DNA from: a phage
Direction: 5' to 3' (one strand)
Sequence record: PZ452578.1
DNA: 64,000 nucleotides
Numbering within the stretch: the first letter of the stretch is position 1; each line of letters begins with the position of its first letter. Made by a program: the position numbers and the translations under genes. Shown here in pieces: positions 3,637-61,553 of this stretch. A model generated the notes under the pieces. That model saw only the letters and a list, made by a program, of their open reading frames with translations. It searched no databases and had not been told where the DNA came from.

Positions 3637-4157
3637 GTTGATCCAAGCTCCTTACTTTCAACGTTTTTAACTAATTTGACAGAAACTAATTCAGCATCTT
3701 GAGTAATCATTACCGGGCCTTCTTCATACTCTTCAAGATATTCTAGAGCTTTCTTTTTAGCTTCTTCCTTCGTATCAGTTTGAGCATAGATATAGAACAT
3801 ACAACCAGTAATACCTACTACTTTCCACTTAATTTCTTTATCAGTTTTAATTTCAAATTTACTTACAGAATCATCTTTTTGAACTTCTTCGAAAAAAGAA
3901 TATTCTAACATATAAGCAATTGAAAATAGCGGGCTAACTTTATAGGATTCACCCATTACATCAACAGCTTTATACCAACAATCATCAATTTCGCGTTTAA
4001 TGCTAATAACATTTTTCGCAGGATCTATTTTTACTTTAAATGAATTTTCCCCAATAAACTGGGCAATTCGTTTATTAGCCCCGCAAGTTTCATTAAAAAT
4101 ATCTTTATATCCAGCTTTAAAGCGATAAACCTTATCTTCTTCAAACCATTCGCTCAT
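3627..4157 (-). CDS. hypothetical protein (176 aa)
   Basis: Track ORF, no recognised motif. Confidence 0.5.
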   Translation of the reverse strand: MSEWFEEDKVYRFKAGYKDIFNETCGANKRIAQFIGENSFKVKIDPAKNVISIKREIDDCWYKAVDVMGESYKVSPLFSIAYMLEYSFFEEVQKDDSVSKFEIKTDKEIKWKVVGITGCMFYIYAQTDTKEEAKKKALEYLEEYEEGPVMITQDAELVSVKLVKNVESKELGSTCY

Positions 4158-4219
4158 TTCAATTTCCTCATTTGTTTTGGTAGAGCTATAATATCATAAC
4201 TCTACCGTAAAGTAAACTA

Positions 4220-54367: not shown

Positions 54368-54577
54368 TTAAATTACATGATTATTTATAATAAATTCTCG
54401 CGGAACGTTAAAATACCCAATTTTAGTTAATATAACAATATCGCCGTTAATAATTACCGGAGAATAATCGGCTGGAGCATTAAATTTCCAATGGGCTCTA
54501 ATATTATATCCATCAGAACCAAATGCTCGACTAGCCGGTCTCCCGGCTTTTTGCCATGCATAAAAATCAAATTTCAT
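54368..54577 (-). CDS. hypothetical protein (69 aa)
   Basis: Track ORF. Confidence 0.4.
   Translation of the reverse strand: MKFDFYAWQKAGRPASRAFGSDGYNIRAHWKFNAPADYSPVIINGDIVILTKIGYFNVPREFIINNHVI
54382..54389 (-). promoter_or_regulatory. late promoter TATAAATA for soc
   Basis: Exact TATAAATA about 30 nt upstream of soc ATG. Confidence 0.65.
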
Positions 54578-54777
54578 TTTGAATGCTCTATAATTAATTT
54601 TAAGGCTTCTTCACGCACCAACTTGTCTAATGGTATATGCCCAGTTTTAATTGTGTAAGCTTTGTGGAGCTGATTAGATAAGAGCTCGTATGTGAGCTCT
54701 TTGTCATAATCTTTAAATAGCTGGTCAATACGTTTCTTGCGGGCTTTCTTAAGCTGGCGTTTATTTAAACGAGCCAT
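54574..54777 (-). CDS. hypothetical basic protein (67 aa)
   Basis: Track ORF. Confidence 0.4.
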   Translation of the reverse strand: MARLNKRQLKKARKKRIDQLFKDYDKELTYELLSNQLHKAYTIKTGHIPLDKLVREEALKLIIEHSK

Positions 54778-55295
54778 TAATATCCTCTGTCTTGACGAGC
54801 GAAGTTTTCAGCATTTTTCAGATAATAAAGTTTAAATATTTCTTCAGCTGACATTCCAAGAGCAATGAATTTATTCATGAAAAAGTGAAATTGATCAATC
54901 AGTTCAAATTTAATTTCAAGTTGATCTTCAGGAGATAAATCTTGAATTTTCTTGGATTGCATTTCAGAATAACGTTTCTTCCAAGGTTTCCATACAGCAG
55001 AAGCTTCTTTTTCACCATTACTCATACCACCAAGAGAAGTATATAGCTCGCGAGTTTCGTCTGCGATATAATCGTCTTGGTTTCGCAACCAAGCAAGAAC
55101 TTCTCCTGCAGTTTCAAGTGAATCGGGATGACGATTTGTTTCTGGTTTATCATTAGCCAAACGAATCTGTAAATGCCGCTGCATGTCAAGCATAACCTGC
55201 AGTGGGTCAATATTGTGCATAATATTCTCAGCATATGCACGATTTGCTTTATCAACACCTTCGATCAAATGAGCGCATTCATTAAAGTAAGCCAT
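54777..55295 (-). CDS. 56: dCTPase-dUTPase gp56 (172 aa, MazG-like)
   Basis: ATG 55295 (MAYFNECAHLIEG...) with AAGGAAAAATA SD; track ORF extends to 55388. Confidence 0.75.
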   Translation of the reverse strand: MAYFNECAHLIEGVDKANRAYAENIMHNIDPLQVMLDMQRHLQIRLANDKPETNRHPDSLETAGEVLAWLRNQDDYIADETRELYTSLGGMSNGEKEASAVWKPWKKRYSEMQSKKIQDLSPEDQLEIKFELIDQFHFFMNKFIALGMSAEEIFKLYYLKNAENFARQDRGY

Positions 55296-55329
55296 TATTT
55301 TTCCTTTCAATTCGTGGGTTAGTAGATTA

Positions 55330-55355
55330 ATTATACAATAAATATATAAAGCAAT
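55330..55355 (-). promoter_or_regulatory. candidate middle promoter for gene 56 (MotA box ATTGCTTTA, 11-nt spacer, TATAAT)
   Basis: Consensus-like MotA box and -10; overlaps the SD of the plus-strand ORF. Confidence 0.45.
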
Positions 55356-55366
55356 AAGGAGGACAT

Positions 55367-55567
55367 ATGGTACAAAAATTAATGGCACTTGTTAATGCCA
55401 TCAAAGGTAATAAAAAACGTATAGCTTTTACTATTTCTGCTATGGTAGGAATTTTACTCTGGAACTTTATTTTATCACCTGTTGCAATTGCACATGGTAT
55501 TAATATTCCAGTAGTTACTCTTGATACATTTGTAGATTTAGCATTTGCTTTAGTTGGGTTAATTTAA
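55367..55567 (+). CDS. candidate small membrane protein (66 aa) on the opposite strand
   Basis: AAGGAGG 4 nt before ATG 55367; hydrophobic; stop overlaps gene 61 stop convergently. Confidence 0.35.
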   Translation: MVQKLMALVNAIKGNKKRIAFTISAMVGILLWNFILSPVAIAHGINIPVVTLDTFVDLAFALVGLI

Positions 55568-56592
55568 ATCTTAGCATATTTAGATAGCCGCATTTTAGCC
55601 ATCAACCCCTGTGCAATATTATTTTTCATATATTCCATAATTTGTTCAGGGGTTGCACCTTCCTTTCTAATCATATCATTAACATCTTTTGATTTCCAGG
55701 GAGATTTATCCCAAAACATAACCCTTTCTCCTGCATCAACTAATTTAGTCATTCGTTTGATAGTGTCAGGGTGACGAGGTTCATTATCTAAAACCCACAC
55801 TCGTCTATCTTTAAATGGAACAACTTCTAAGTCTAATTGACCACCCGTAATAGCTATACCATTTTCAATAAAAAGTGAATCTATAGGTCCTTCTAGAACA
55901 TATACATCACCATCTTTAACCCGTTCGACACCATAGATTTTTGTTGCTTCAGGATAAGCTTTGATAGTGATATATTTTTGGGGAGCATCTTTCTTTAATG
56001 CACGTCCTTGAAAAGACTCGGCTTTTCCATTAGCATTATAAATTGGAATAACAAGACGAGGCTCAGGTATTTCCTTTTTATATGTTCCCGGTGCTATGCT
56101 ATTAACCAATTTAGGCCATTCGGTTGTAAACCAAAGATATTTCCATTTATCCTTTGGAATACAACGAGCTTTTACATATTTTATAATTGGATGGTCTTCC
56201 GCCAGTTTATCTAATCGAACACATGACGGAAGAGATTTAATTATTTTCTTCTCAGGTTGTTTAGGAAGTTCTTTAGGTTTTTCTACTGGACGACTTTTAC
56301 CTTTTTCTTTTCTTATTTCAAAGATATACTCACGATATAAATCAGGTTCAAACTCCTTTAAATATATTCCGATTGGTGCATGATAGTTACAGTTATAACA
56401 ATGAATATTTCCTTCATTATTATCACCATAATACCATCCACGAGCTTTATTCTGGTCGGTTTTTGAATCTCCACAAACAGGGCATCTAAACCGCAATTTA
56501 AAAGTTGAACTATTATTTACTTGTGTGAATTTAGGTAAATGAGCTAATGCACGATACGCAAACTCATTATCAATCCAAGGTATTGATGACAT
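55564..56592 (-). CDS. 61: DNA primase gp61 (342 aa)
   Basis: 342 aa; zinc finger CPVCGDS...CYNC and TOPRIM region. Confidence 0.9.
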   Translation of the reverse strand: MSSIPWIDNEFAYRALAHLPKFTQVNNSSTFKLRFRCPVCGDSKTDQNKARGWYYGDNNEGNIHCYNCNYHAPIGIYLKEFEPDLYREYIFEIRKEKGKSRPVEKPKELPKQPEKKIIKSLPSCVRLDKLAEDHPIIKYVKARCIPKDKWKYLWFTTEWPKLVNSIAPGTYKKEIPEPRLVIPIYNANGKAESFQGRALKKDAPQKYITIKAYPEATKIYGVERVKDGDVYVLEGPIDSLFIENGIAITGGQLDLEVVPFKDRRVWVLDNEPRHPDTIKRMTKLVDAGERVMFWDKSPWKSKDVNDMIRKEGATPEQIMEYMKNNIAQGLMAKMRLSKYAKI

Positions 56593-56594
56593 TT

Positions 56595-56759
56595 TTAATC
56601 TTCTTTTTCTTTAGATTCCTCTTTTTTCTTTTTAGGAATCTGTTCAGGACCTTTATTTACTACAGCGCCTGACGTTGTTCCAGTAGAGATATTTTCAGGA
56701 TTACCACCTGAATCTCCAGCGACCATATCTTCTTTAATAAATTCTTTATATGTTTTCAT
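56595..56759 (-). CDS. possible small hydrophilic protein (54 aa)
   Basis: ATG 56759 preceded by the same upstream sequence as the 118-aa ORF; below track cutoff. Confidence 0.35.
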   Translation of the reverse strand: MKTYKEFIKEDMVAGDSGGNPENISTGTTSGAVVNKGPEQIPKKKKEESKEKED

Positions 56760-56804
56760 ATTAACCTCTATTCATAAAAGCATTAAAAATTTGGTCATCA
56801 ATAG
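56757..56804 (-). repeat. 48-bp direct repeat, copy 1
   Basis: 47 of 48 nt shared with 57115-57161; one mismatch and one 1-nt indel. Confidence 0.75.
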
Positions 56805-57117
56805 ATGGAATAGCAACCTTTTCGGCATCATTTAGCAAATCATTAATTTCATCGGATAGCATAACACATGTACCTTTATTTCCTGTAATTGTTACTGCGC
56901 AATTACGAACGTTTTCTTTATTAAATTTTAGGTTAATATTTTCGTAATGAAAATCCTTTAATGCTGAATATATTTTTAAAATAAAATTGTCTTTTACTAC
57001 AATAAACCCAACCTCACTATTAAAACGCGGTTCATGGAAACTGTAATAAACCTTTTCATCTATAAAATCGTATGAAATTTTTTCCATTTTTAAATATGAA
57101 AATTCAGAACTATACAT
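56761..57117 (-). CDS. hypothetical protein (118 aa) flanked by 48-bp direct repeats
   Basis: Track ORF; C-terminus shares SIDDQI with the 204-aa ORF. Confidence 0.5.
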   Translation of the reverse strand: MYSSEFSYLKMEKISYDFIDEKVYYSFHEPRFNSEVGFIVVKDNFILKIYSALKDFHYENINLKFNKENVRNCAVTITGNKGTCVMLSDEINDLLNDAEKVAIPSIDDQIFNAFMNRG

Positions 57118-57161
57118 ATTAACCTTTATTCATAAAAGCATTAAAATTTGGTCATCAATAG
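57115..57161 (-). repeat. 47-bp direct repeat, copy 2
   Basis: Pairs with 56757-56804. Confidence 0.75.
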
Positions 57162-57744
57162 AAACATTTACTTTAGACTGTTTTTCTGATGGTAATTCAT
57201 ATCCACATATTACAATTTTGTGATCAATATCAAAATACACAGAAGCAATATGATTAATGATATTTTCAGTGAAGTCTAAATCAACATCAATATCTTTTTG
57301 ACCAAAGCCCAAAGGATAAATAATGCGAGTAATTCGATTATCTTTAACAAAGATTCCACCGACATACTCTGTACTGCGTTTAAAGTCTACACGCCGACGA
57401 AATGAAAAATATTCAGGCTCTTTATGAGCTCGGCTCATAGGACACAACGAGTAACTAGAATAAGAGATGTCAAATCCTACGCCTTCGATATGAGCCAAAG
57501 TGTCATGATTAAACCAATTATAATCGTACGCCAAATCCATTAGATTATAATATGTAAAAGGCACCGGATTAACATCATTAGTCACAAGCATGTAATTAGC
57601 AACTGCTATAATTTCATTGTTTTTAACGAATACAAACCGTGATTGATGCGAATGACCTGGACCCGCGTTTTCACGATTAATGATATAACACTGGGCACCT
57701 TTATATTTGTATGTATCTTTGCACTTGTGCATTTGATAGAGCAT
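57130..57744 (-). CDS. hypothetical protein (204 aa), 61.2 position
   Basis: Track ORF; any equivalence to T4 61.2 is positional only. Confidence 0.45.
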   Translation of the reverse strand: MLYQMHKCKDTYKYKGAQCYIINRENAGPGHSHQSRFVFVKNNEIIAVANYMLVTNDVNPVPFTYYNLMDLAYDYNWFNHDTLAHIEGVGFDISYSSYSLCPMSRAHKEPEYFSFRRRVDFKRSTEYVGGIFVKDNRITRIIYPLGFGQKDIDVDLDFTENIINHIASVYFDIDHKIVICGYELPSEKQSKVNVSIDDQILMLL

Positions 57745-58037
57745 TATTCACCTACCACTTCAGCGATGATATTTTTGTTATTAAAGTTTTTATCGCAATA
57801 CAGAACATAATTATACTGCATTACACCACCAGACTTAAGCTGTTTTTGCACTTCAGCTTTCATTTCAGGACGATCGCGCTCAACGATATTCATAATATCT
57901 GCTTCAATTTGAGTTTCAACCTCAGTCTGATCCGCAGTCATAGACCATTCGCACAAATCTTTATCATAACCTGCCACAGCAGGCTGAGCAGCACAAGAAG
58001 CTAAAGCAAAAATTGTGGCAAAGATAAATTTTTTCAT
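57744..58037 (-). CDS. sp: Spackle periplasmic superinfection-exclusion protein (97 aa)
   Basis: Signal peptide MKKFIFATIFALASCAAQPAVAG; 97 aa; early promoter 58066-58095. Confidence 0.65.
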   Translation of the reverse strand: MKKFIFATIFALASCAAQPAVAGYDKDLCEWSMTADQTEVETQIEADIMNIVERDRPEMKAEVQKQLKSGGVMQYNYVLYCDKNFNNKNIIAEVVGE

Positions 58038-58065
58038 GATAATCTCCTCAGTAGTTTATGTTTAT

Positions 58066-58095
58066 ATAGTATCTCAATTTCCAACAAAAGTAAAC
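58066..58095 (-). promoter_or_regulatory. T4-type early promoter for sp
   Basis: GTTTAC and TACTAT. Confidence 0.45.
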
Positions 58096-58097
58096 AG

Positions 58098-58355
58098 TTA
58101 TTTTAAAACTTCTGCGTAATCACATGTTACAAACTGTTTCTCTAGCTTGACGATTTTACGAAAGTATCTTTTGCATTGGCGAATCTGCCGCTTCGTAGGG
58201 CGAACAGCAAACTTAATAAATTCCACTCGACCAAATGGAGGGCTTTCTTCTGCTGGAATATCTAACACCAATTCCCACGTATCTGCAATAAGTGCTTTGA
58301 ATTGCGTATTTTTCCTGACGTTATACGGAGTAGGTTTAAATAAAACAATATGCAT
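58098..58355 (-). CDS. hypothetical protein (85 aa), 61.4 / tifA position
   Basis: Internal ATG 58355 lies 1 nt after the dmd stop; track ORF from 58397 would overlap dmd. Confidence 0.4.
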   Translation of the reverse strand: MHIVLFKPTPYNVRKNTQFKALIADTWELVLDIPAEESPPFGRVEFIKFAVRPTKRQIRQCKRYFRKIVKLEKQFVTCDYAEVLK

Positions 58356-58356
58356 A

Positions 58357-58539
58357 TTATCCTCGGCAATCCACTTCACATACTTTCTTGTCATCAATGA
58401 AAGCTTTAACTAATGCTTTATTAACTTCAGCATACTGAGTAGTAGCCCATTGAACGTCATCTTTCATCATTGTGGTTTCTTTAGTAAACATGCTTTCATT
58501 CTTAAACCACCCCATAAAAACTACCTTTACCAATTCCAT
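58357..58539 (-). CDS. dmd: Dmd-like antitoxin (60 aa)
   Basis: 60 aa and position upstream of the 61.x cluster; GAGGAG SD; early promoter 58579-58608. Confidence 0.55.
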   Translation of the reverse strand: MELVKVVFMGWFKNESMFTKETTMMKDDVQWATTQYAEVNKALVKAFIDDKKVCEVDCRG

Positions 58540-58578
58540 AACAATCTCCTCATTTAACCAACAAGACTACTATACCAT

Positions 58579-58608
58579 AGTCTCGTCAGCTTGTAAACTA
58601 AAATTTTA
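58579..58608 (-). promoter_or_regulatory. T4-type early promoter for dmd cluster
   Basis: GTTTACA, 17-nt spacer, TATAGT; overlaps 3' end of gene 41. Confidence 0.5.
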
Positions 58609-60025
58609 ATTCATTCGCCAAAGCATCTAACTGAGCTCGAGTGGATTCATTTCTTTGATAGCGATTCTGTTCAGCCTGAATCTGCTGTGAACCTGCTACT
58701 TCACTCACTTCAGTTGGAGTAGAATCTTGTTCAATTTCTACCCATTTCTGATTTCCCTTTTGAACACCCATCAAAAACTTATTCCATTTGTTCTTATCGC
58801 CATATCGTGATTTGATTTGCTTAATGAGTTGTTGTTCAGCAGCTGCTAGCTCCTCGGTTTCAATGACCGCAAGCATAAAATCAGCTGTTGCTGGAAGACC
58901 GGCAGATTCTGCGATATCACTCATGTTAACATCAGAAGAATCCCAAGCTTGTTTACCAACCTGTGCTGCAGTCCAAAGAACAGTTTCGGTTTCAACAGCC
59001 AGAGCACGCAATTCCTCTGCAATAGCTTTAACAGTTGTGTAACTATTTTCTGAATAAACTCTAATGCGGCAAGATTTACAAATACCTAGATAATCGACAA
59101 TAATGATTGTTGGAACAAAATTCTTCTTGAGCTTCAATTCGTTTAAAAGTGATCGAAATGTATTAGCATCTGCTCCACCAGTAGGATACTGTTTAACGAT
59201 TAAACGACCAAGAGTAGATTTCTCACGCCATTTTTCCATTTTTCCTTTATACTCAGCGTAAGAAATATGCCCATCATCAATGTCATCAAGAGAAACATCG
59301 AGCATATTAGCGTCAATACGTTTAGCACAGACTTCTTCTGCCATTTCCATGGAGATATAAAGAACGTTATGTCCGAGCTGTAAATAATCTGCTGCTAATG
59401 AACAAAGTCCTAATGATTTACCAACGTTAACGCCAGCCATTAAAACGTTCAGTGTTCCAGTCTCAGCTCCGCCTTTAGTAATTTTGTTTAGAATTCTGAG
59501 TTTAAATGGAACCTTACGAGCTTTATTCATATAAGATAGCCAACGTGCTTCATAGTCATCCATCCAATCATGGCCAACGTAGCTATCAAATGAAATTGAT
59601 AATGCTTGGCGCATGATGTCAGGAATAGCACCTACATCTGGCATTTTCTTATTTCGTTTTTCTGGAGGAAGCTCAGCATTAGTTTGAATTTCGATTATTT
59701 TAGACGTAGCATTAAACATCGCCCTTTGCTGAACATATTTTTCTGTTTCTTTTACTAACCAGCTGTGGTCTTCTGGAGAATCAGCCAGTTTTGAAATAAG
59801 TGTTTTTACACCAGAATATTCTGTTTCAGTAAATGAACTATTTTCTAATGCAACATTTAACGCATTAATAGATGGAACGCTATGATACTCATTGACATGA
59901 GATTTAATTAATTTGAATGTATTTTTAGCTGGACCACTTTCAAAATATTCTGAATCCATATATGGCCAAACTTTTGAAAAATAAGCTTGATCAAATATGA
60001 GATGAGAAAGAATAATTTCTACCAC
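58598..60025 (-). CDS. 41: replicative helicase gp41 (475 aa)
   Basis: 475 aa; DnaB-family Walker A GVNVGKS. Confidence 0.9.
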   Translation of the reverse strand: MVEIILSHLIFDQAYFSKVWPYMDSEYFESGPAKNTFKLIKSHVNEYHSVPSINALNVALENSSFTETEYSGVKTLISKLADSPEDHSWLVKETEKYVQQRAMFNATSKIIEIQTNAELPPEKRNKKMPDVGAIPDIMRQALSISFDSYVGHDWMDDYEARWLSYMNKARKVPFKLRILNKITKGGAETGTLNVLMAGVNVGKSLGLCSLAADYLQLGHNVLYISMEMAEEVCAKRIDANMLDVSLDDIDDGHISYAEYKGKMEKWREKSTLGRLIVKQYPTGGADANTFRSLLNELKLKKNFVPTIIIVDYLGICKSCRIRVYSENSYTTVKAIAEELRALAVETETVLWTAAQVGKQAWDSSDVNMSDIAESAGLPATADFMLAVIETEELAAAEQQLIKQIKSRYGDKNKWNKFLMGVQKGNQKWVEIEQDSTPTEVSEVAGSQQIQAEQNRYQRNESTRAQLDALANELKF

Positions 60026-60034
60026 ACTTACTCC

Positions 60035-60397
60035 TTAAAAGAATTTAAATTTTTTCTTTGACCTTTTATTAAATGCATCTTGTAGTTGCATTGTAATACA
60101 TTTTTCTACATGAGGAGCTAACTCAGCTTTTCTTTCTTGGTCAAGAACAGCAAAGTCCATTACAACCTTTCCATCAACCCAATCTAATTTTGTCACATAC
60201 ACTATATGTGTAGAACCATCTTCTAGTTTAATGATAATCTCCTGGATAACATTTTCCATAGCGGATTTAATTATCTTAAGAGATTCATTAAAAAGACGTT
60301 CTTTTCTTTCTTCTTCCCCCTCCGAAGAGGGGGATTCATCGATAATTTCTAGGTCTAAATCTAAATCATCTTTATTCATTAAATTCTTCCATATCAC
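60035..60397 (-). CDS. 40: gp40 head-assembly protein (120 aa)
   Basis: Size and position between uvsX and 41. Confidence 0.65.
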   Translation of the reverse strand: MIWKNLMNKDDLDLDLEIIDESPSSEGEEERKERLFNESLKIIKSAMENVIQEIIIKLEDGSTHIVYVTKLDWVDGKVVMDFAVLDQERKAELAPHVEKCITMQLQDAFNKRSKKKFKFF

Positions 60398-61553
60398 TTA
60401 ACTGTTCTAGGTCAGTTTCTAAATCAGCAGCTGATTTACTTTTACTTTCTGGAGATTTAAATTTTTCAACCTTTGAGTTAATTAATTCATCGACTTCAGC
60501 TTCAACAATTTCATTACTATCAATAGCACCTAACTGATAAGCACGTTTAATAGCATCTCGGAATGGTTGATGCTTAAATAAAGGACCCCAGAATGTAGTG
60601 CAGTTGGTATCTTTTGCACGCCAAGATTTTTCTTCGCGAATCATCTCGCCGGTTTCTTCATCAAGAAATTCACGAGCATACCAGCCATTTTTAGGTTTTA
60701 CAACAAATCCTAATTCTAGAGCCATATCTAACAATCCAGAATAAGGATCGATACCACCGTCAAATTTAACATCAATAAAGAATTTACTTTTTTCTTTAAC
60801 GGTACGAGATTTTTCTACATTTAGAACAAATTGATACCCCTGAAGATCAGAACCATCTTTAATCTGGCGTTTACCGATAATGAATACAGTATCAGCCGAA
60901 TACATTACGCCTGTACCACCTGTCATCACGGTTTTACTAAACATTTCAATTGTTTCAATTGTATGGTTAACCGCAACACATGGAATATTTTTAATGCTAA
61001 AATAAGGAGTAACAATACGGAATAATGACTTCAGTGATTTAGCACGAGTCATATCTGCCACAGATTTTTCATTCAAGGCATCTTCCGTTTCTTTCTTAGA
61101 AGCCATATTACCGATTGAGTCGATGAATACAATAACCTTTTCACCACGCTCAATAGCTTCAAGCTGGTTCACCATATCAATTTTCAGCTGTTCAACTGAC
61201 TGGATTGGCGTATGAATTACACGTTCCGGGTCAACTCCCATGGATCGCAAATAAGCTGGAGTAATACCAAATTCGCTATCATAGAATAGACAAACCGCGT
61301 CAGGATATTTGTTTAAATATGCCGCAACCATAGTCAAAGACATATTTGATTTAAAGTGTTTAGAAGGCCCTGCGAAAATAGTTAAACCAGACTGCATGCC
61401 GCCATCAATCGCACCAGAAATAGCAATATTAAGCATTGGGATTTTTGTACGGATTACATCCTTTTCATTAAAGAATTTAGATGTAGTCAGTTCAGCAGTC
61501 ATTTTAGAAGTGGAAGCTTTAATCAAACGGGATTTTAAATCTGCAATAGACAT
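60372..61553 (-). CDS. uvsX: recombinase UvsX (393 aa, RecA-like)
   Basis: Sequence recognised as T4 UvsX; Walker A GPSKHFKS. Confidence 0.9.
   Translation of the reverse strand: MSIADLKSRLIKASTSKMTAELTTSKFFNEKDVIRTKIPMLNIAISGAIDGGMQSGLTIFAGPSKHFKSNMSLTMVAAYLNKYPDAVCLFYDSEFGITPAYLRSMGVDPERVIHTPIQSVEQLKIDMVNQLEAIERGEKVIVFIDSIGNMASKKETEDALNEKSVADMTRAKSLKSLFRIVTPYFSIKNIPCVAVNHTIETIEMFSKTVMTGGTGVMYSADTVFIIGKRQIKDGSDLQGYQFVLNVEKSRTVKEKSKFFIDVKFDGGIDPYSGLLDMALELGFVVKPKNGWYAREFLDEETGEMIREEKSWRAKDTNCTTFWGPLFKHQPFRDAIKRAYQLGAIDSNEIVEAEVDELINSKVEKFKSPESKSKSAADLETDLEQLSDMEEFNE

Follow-up and report, generated by a model that had tools for sequence, protein, structure and literature searches.

The 64-kb Tequatrovirus (T4-like phage) stretch PZ452578.1, the window to which all positions below refer, carries six tightly packed minus-strand open reading frames (ORFs) at 56595-58539, flanked by the genes for primase (61) and helicase (41). 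This region is almost certainly the orthologue of the early 'anti-toxin-antitoxin (anti-TA) island' of phage T4, laid out as two early minus-strand transcription units. The island concept was published in 2022 (Srikant, Guegler & Laub, eLife; PMC9391042), and the cluster is that known island plus the superinfection-exclusion gene sp. The T4 dmd-tifA operon and anti-TA island likewise read 41, promoter, dmd, tifA, promoter, sp, adfA (PMC9391042). In the window the order of transcription is dmd, tifA, sp, adfA, an ORF of 118 amino acids (aa) and 61.1. The genes and their flanks are as follows.

58598-60025, minus strand: helicase gene 41, the upstream flank
58357-58539, minus strand: dmd (61.5), 60 aa, antitoxin mimic
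58098-58355, minus strand: tifA (61.4), 85 aa, ToxN inhibitor
57744-58037, minus strand: sp (61.3), 97 aa, Spackle precursor
57130-57744, minus strand: adfA (61.2), 204 aa here versus 208, with an altered C-terminus
56761-57117, minus strand: 118-aa ORF (phrog_4122; 'RB32ORF033c'), without a T4 counterpart
56595-56759, minus strand: 61.1, 54 aa, with a Lys/Glu-rich C-terminus
55564-56592, minus strand: primase gene 61, the downstream flank

Proteins were compared with the T4 reference NC_000866. The dmd, tifA, sp and adfA products are 97-99% identical to those of T4 (the adfA tail excluded), each of these four ORFs scores above the curated cut-off of its own Pfam family, and the PHROGs assignments agree. 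The synteny of the locus is kept with T4, TB37, T2, ECO4 and RB69. At the DNA level the 2-kb locus is matched in 540 phage records at 80-99% identity, nearly all of them from Tequatrovirus phages that infect Escherichia, Shigella and Yersinia; the closest match is phage vB_Eco_TB37 (98.4% identity). The 61.1 protein is identical to T4 gp61.1 at 51 of its 54 residues and matches phrog_1823 (9e-34), with no Pfam match. None of the six proteins matched an entry in PADLOC or NCBIfam, which is unsurprising for libraries of host-defence and bacterial proteins, and an Rfam scan of 55000-60500 found no family.

A preliminary description of this DNA had listed ORFs of 204, 97, 85 and 60 aa between genes 61 and 41. 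All four are found at the positions, sizes and strand it gave; 61.1 and the 118-aa ORF lie outside the interval that it covered and were missed. Its reading of the ORFs is supported: the outcome that would have spoken against it, a lack of similarity of the 60-aa and 85-aa proteins to Dmd or the 61.4 product, is not what is seen. The four no longer need to be treated as mere candidates but can be assigned to known genes as orthologues, since 61.4 and 61.2 have now been named and have known targets (TifA and ToxN, AdfA and DarT1). Gene identity, orthology, signals, allele differences, repeat structure and paralogy are established here, and the value of the analysis is the allele-level annotation of characterised T4 orthologues.

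A reading of these small genes as dead remnants, or as reading frames that arose by chance in AT-rich sequence, is extremely improbable. The region is indeed AT-rich, with a GC content of 0.25-0.38, and holds many spurious antisense ORFs of 30-97 aa. However, all six minus-strand ORFs have strong family matches and are almost identical to expressed proteins of T4, and crystal structures exist for two of these. Little space separates the six, Shine-Dalgarno sites are present, and stop and start codons are coupled at the junctions. No family is matched by the antisense ORFs; the larger ones on the plus strand (97, 88 and 55 aa) have no PHROG match and are treated as spurious. Conservation already refutes an origin by chance.

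Dmd, the product of the first gene, matches its Pfam family (PF17587) with residues 1-60 on profile positions 1-60 (1.8e-45, 153.5 bits versus a cut-off of 27). The sole difference from the 'Antitoxin Dmd' crystallised with LsoA (PDB 5hy3_B, 1e-36) is I22T. The ORF that had been called Dmd-like is 59/60 identical to T4 Dmd and 60/60 identical to T2 Dmd, and the ECO4 protein is also the same. Where T4 Dmd has I22, the window, like T2 and ECO4, has T22, a common natural allele. Dmd acts directly on two HEPN RNase toxins, RnlA and LsoA, and inhibits them (PMC8266594); by analogy with the T4 work the window Dmd should do the same. It would bind RnlA and LsoA and stand in for the labile host antitoxins after host shut-off.

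The gene directly downstream of dmd is tifA, as it is in T4, T2, RB69, ECO4, TB37 and MN01. The preliminary description placed the start of the 85-aa ORF 1 nucleotide (nt) past the dmd stop, and the junction does read TAA-T-ATG, which suggests translational coupling. The tifA ATG at 58355 sits within a longer TTG-started ORF (58098-58397). TifA scores 73 bits (1.8e-20) against Pfam DUF7279 (PF23945; cut-off 24.5); a PDB sequence search gave no match. Its similarity to the T4 61.4 product, which had been left unconfirmed, extends to 84 of 85 residues, with V83 here, as in T2, TB37 and ECO4, for I83 in T4; this too is a common natural allele. TifA carries the T4-type C-terminal extension, which the RB69 protein lacks. 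The central basic cluster R52-K67 (RPTKRQIRQCKRYFRK) is kept, RB69 included, and is invariant in six phages except at C61 and Y64; a positively charged central cluster has been described for TifA (PMC9391042).

The active form of TifA is the protein rather than an RNA. It is co-purified with ToxN, whose toxicity to cells it relieves, and association with ToxN and its neutralisation have been shown for the TifA proteins of T4, T2, T6 and RB69 (PMC9391042). The escape of T4 from plasmid-borne toxIN is by amplification of dmd-tifA (PMC9391042; PMC13096335). In the window phage TifA, probably coupled to dmd in translation, would be expected to neutralise the ToxN endoribonuclease of type III toxIN in a dose-dependent manner.

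For T4, transcription of dmd-tifA from an early promoter in front of dmd has been described, together with a second promoter downstream of tifA (PMC9391042). Sites at both positions are present in the window.

58569..58597, minus strand: early sigma-70 promoter of dmd-tifA, TTTACA - 17 nt - TATAGT, with TG before the -10 hexamer
58066..58094, minus strand: putative second early promoter, upstream of sp, GTTTACT - 17 nt - TACTAT

The promoter upstream of dmd is the best match in a scan of 55400-60200 (10/12 plus the TG). The 61-nt region between 41 and dmd differs from T4 at 2 positions, with both hexamers unchanged, and the 63-nt region between tifA and sp is identical to T4. From its sequence, GTTTACT-17-TACTAT is a candidate for the sp promoter. 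GAGGAG ribosome-binding sites precede dmd and sp, and the remaining gene junctions are coupled (TAA-T-ATG, TAATG and TAA-T-ATG); in the TAATG the sp stop overlaps the adfA start. The signal scan found no terminator-like site on the minus strand. From this layout we infer two early units, dmd-tifA and sp-adfA-118 aa-61.1, the second of which probably runs on into gene 61.

The 97-aa ORF, described earlier as Spackle-like with a signal peptide, is 95/97 identical to T4 Spackle. It matches Pfam T4_Spackle (PF25676) at 4.7e-44 (149.4 bits versus a cut-off of 27) and PDB entry 6x6o at E 3e-61. The signal peptide is real. It consists of 22 residues, MKKFIFATIFALASCAAQPAVA, with MKK, a hydrophobic core and AVA before the G that follows cleavage, and the solved mature Spackle chain 7cn6 begins, and aligns, from residue 23. 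T4 Spackle (6X6O, 6XC0, 6XC1, 7CN6, 7CN7) is also 97 aa long, with a like signal-peptide architecture and two cysteines in the mature chain. The two differences from T4 are M21V, in the signal peptide, and K53E. E53 is common to T2, TB37 and ECO4. V21 is absent from the other five phages compared; it occupies position -2 of the cleavage site, and the A-x-A motif is retained. Cys29 and Cys81, the disulfide pair of the mature protein, are present, and the residues that contact the gp5 lysozyme (S32, M33, T34, A35, Q37 and N76) are identical to those of T4.

After cleavage Spackle is a 75-aa helical bundle that binds and inhibits the gp5 lysozyme domain, giving superinfection exclusion (Shi et al. 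2020, PMC7677548). In the window phage, exported Spackle would clamp the gp5 tail-spike lysozyme domain of superinfecting T-even phages in the periplasm. Because the target is the lysozyme of an incoming phage, Spackle is not a counter-defence protein. The earlier suggestion that the ORFs are counter-defence candidates holds for Dmd, TifA and AdfA, whose roles are established in T-even phages, and fails for Spackle. By analogy with T4, resistance to RnlAB/LsoAB and to ToxIN at chromosomal level is expected of this phage, as is exclusion of superinfecting T-even phages.

The 204-aa ORF corresponds to T4 gp61.2 (AdfA), with 194 of the first 199 residues identical, up to a frameshift. It matches Pfam AdfA (PF23813) at 9.1e-132 and 437 bits, residues 1-201 falling on positions 1-204 of the 211 in the profile; a PDB sequence search gave no match. 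AdfA neutralises the DarT1 ADP-ribosyltransferase, apparently through binding, and would in this way keep phage DNA from being modified. The RB69 protein needs the change R164H to neutralise DarT1, while T4 AdfA naturally has His (Johannesman et al. 2025, PMC11825919). The window protein has His165 (INHIAS), as T4 does, at the position of RB69 R164 (INRIAS). The published two-hybrid and plaque data are for the T4 and RB69 alleles only (PMC11825919). The main anti-DarTG1 factor is a different protein, AdfN (gp30.3; PMC11825919). A tblastn search did not find adfN in the 64-kb window.

The C-terminal end of AdfA differs in the window through a single site.

57143..57146: adfA frameshift site, 4 A on the plus strand versus 5 in relatives

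The coding strand reads TTTT where relatives have TTTTT, a 1-nt deletion in the DNA alignment. As a result the canonical tail ...DDQIFNAFMNRG becomes ...DDQILMLL; extended to the stop codon, the end ...SIDDQIFNAFMNRG is turned into ...SIDDQILMLL, with FNAFMNRG replaced by LMLL. The last nine residues of T4 AdfA are ...IFNAFMNRG, whereas the window protein ends in ...ILMLL and has an extra AdfA-like gene behind it. The tail DDQIFNAFM(N/K)(R/K)(G/D) is invariant in 17/17 other aligned members. RB69-type AdfA is 68% identical overall and keeps the tail despite synonymous changes in its codons, which indicates that the tail peptide itself is under selection. Since this conserved tail is lost through a 1-nt deletion, the activity of AdfA is uncertain, and the AdfA of this phage may be compromised.

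The loss of the tail belongs with several points that weigh against taking the window as a fully working copy of the T4 island. For these exact alleles the biochemical functions given above are predictions, carried over from experiments on 97-100% identical proteins of T4, T2 and RB69. T4 AdfA itself binds DarT1 weakly and is dispensable for DarTG1 resistance (PMC11825919), and an AdfA allele without the invariant tail may, judged from its sequence, be inactive. A single native copy of tifA beats chromosomal toxIN and not plasmid-borne toxIN (PMC9391042). Finally, the putative sp promoter scores 8/12, which is under the scan threshold, and was not picked up.

Across the 79-nt stretch at the frameshift, not one of the 238 phage records that match reaches 100% identity, and the best 12 of the 238 show a 1-nt gap there. 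The only matching record with the same adfA deletion is ECO4 (MF001360), whose protein is annotated at 204 aa. In IMG/VR the variant tail sequence has 0 exact matches and the canonical one has 4. It is quite conceivable, if the less probable explanation, that a sequencing or assembly error in a short homopolymer produced the frameshift, in which case the true adfA product has the usual 208 aa and ends in FNAFMNRG. The change is of a single base in an A5/T5 run, the lost tail is invariant in 17 other sequences of three size classes, and the variant is missing from IMG/VR and from 237 of the 238 phage records. Restoring one base also returns the canonical frame, which then runs to a TAA at the canonical stop (with NRG changed to NKG). 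However, ECO4 is an independent genome of different gene content, without the 118-aa ORF, and has the same deletion; moreover, at 5 bases the run is rather short to cause a systematic homopolymer error, and the essential neighbours 61, 41 and uvsX are intact.

The balance tips slightly towards a real frameshift, with adfA decaying or changed in function and the change tolerated. Such a loss would be tolerable because DarTG1 resistance of T-even phages depends on AdfN, not on AdfA: deleting adfA leaves the DarTG1 sensitivity of T4 unchanged, and T2 is resistant although it has no adfA at all (PMC11825919). The shared deletion in ECO4 fits decay, as does the polymorphism of the slot, which holds adfA only, the 118-aa ORF only, or both. 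The state of the rest of the gene fits it less well. The other 199 codons are intact, with the 194/199 identity to T4, and His165 is kept; in addition, adfN lies outside the window.

The extra gene behind adfA is a paralogue of the C-terminal half of AdfA. Against Pfam AdfA the 118-aa protein scores 34.4 bits (cut-off 27), only over profile positions 113-211, and hhalign aligns its family with the AdfA family at 97.6% probability (E 3e-12). All five cluster representatives of the protein have a precomputed PF23813 assignment. An AlphaFold2 model of the 118-aa protein has a mean predicted local distance difference test score (pLDDT) of 81, and a BFVD fold search with it returned a 212-aa protein that is likely an RB69-type AdfA (E 6e-5). 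The 118-aa protein ends in an identical AdfA-type tail of 14 residues, the same SIDDQIFNAFMNRG with which canonical AdfA ends. It has no counterpart of AdfA residues 1-107, and a Cys stands at the aligned His164-equivalent position; it follows that it is a one-domain paralogue, not an AdfA orthologue.

This gene family is small. An exhaustive profile search found only 10 clusters among 1.84 billion representative proteins, which leaves no broader family that could be informative. No convincing fold relative was found in the PDB, and a literature search for the gene found no paper. Within phages the ORF is present in 334 records, T2 included, while T4 and ECO4 are without it. It occurs together with adfA in the window, TB37, RB32, RB18 and many others. 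In contrast, T2 has no adfA, and its 118-aa ORF, 95% identical to that of the window, comes directly after sp (AP018813; 41-dmd-tifA-sp-118 aa ORF-61.1-61), where the window has both genes in tandem. The T2 locus is otherwise close, with the same Dmd and one residue different in each of TifA and Sp. A simple microhomology deletion of adfA was considered for the T2 sp/118-aa junction, but the junction does not match a clean crossover and no such claim is made.

AdfA itself may be the product of an internal duplication, although the hint is weak. Its N-terminal and C-terminal halves align in hhalign at 22% probability, with the common motif FVxVK(N/D)N(E/R)I, and in the AlphaFold2 model both run from strands into a helix in a similar way.

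The 118-aa cassette is flanked by a direct repeat of 49 nt, the copies of which differ by one indel and one mismatch.

56757..56805: direct repeat copy 1, the 3' end of the 118-aa ORF with the ribosome-binding site and ATG of 61.1
57115..57162: direct repeat copy 2, the 3' end of adfA with the ribosome-binding site and ATG of the 118-aa gene

The DNA of adfA and of the 118-aa gene is near-identical over the last 49 nt and unalignable over the remainder. Positions 4129-4177 of the T4 locus (L001) map onto both repeat copies, and the 309 nt between the copies are the only sequence here that T4 lacks. For this reason a crossover in the repeat would interconvert the T4-type arrangement, which ECO4 also has, and the window-type one. 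The slot behind sp occurs in three natural states, with adfA only, with the 118-aa ORF only, and with both. The paralogue and the common tail suggest exchange of cassettes at the conserved 49-nt sequence as a way in which the island diversifies.

The slot of a more distant phage was also inspected. In Escherichia phage MN01 (Gaprivervirus; L006, 2062-2869), tandem genes of 145 and 122 aa stand behind sp, and both products end in ...DDQIFNAFMKR(D/G). Because both carry the conserved tail, the tail is attached to at least three different protein bodies.

A broader proposal can be put forward tentatively, and it may well prove wrong. The slot would be a recombination-driven cassette site for a small, T-even-restricted family in which a variable body is joined to a constant C-terminal tail helix (DDQIFNAFMNRG), with AdfA, the 118-122-aa proteins and the 145-aa Gaprivervirus protein as members. 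On this view the 118-aa protein would be directed against some other toxin or defence of the host. The tail would have a function of its own as a module, and the tail DNA would serve as the crossover site at which cassettes are gained or lost. The AdfA-domain paralogue and the common tail are the only thread here with discovery potential; as they stand, the frameshifted AdfA tail and the paralogue that shares the canonical one are modest side observations.

Beyond gene 61 the neighbouring DNA also departs from T4. The T4 stretch between soc/56 and 61 includes the segF homing-endonuclease and dam methyltransferase genes, and neither has a DNA match anywhere in the window. Around gene 56 (54389-55356) identity to T4 is only about 75%, and this divergence suggests that the segment may be mosaic. 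Next to it, on the plus strand at 55367-55567, is a 66-aa gene (phrog_2024) that is convergent with gene 61 and overlaps its end by 4 nt. The same gene is present in RB69, TB37, T2 and MN01, whereas T4 has dam at this site instead.

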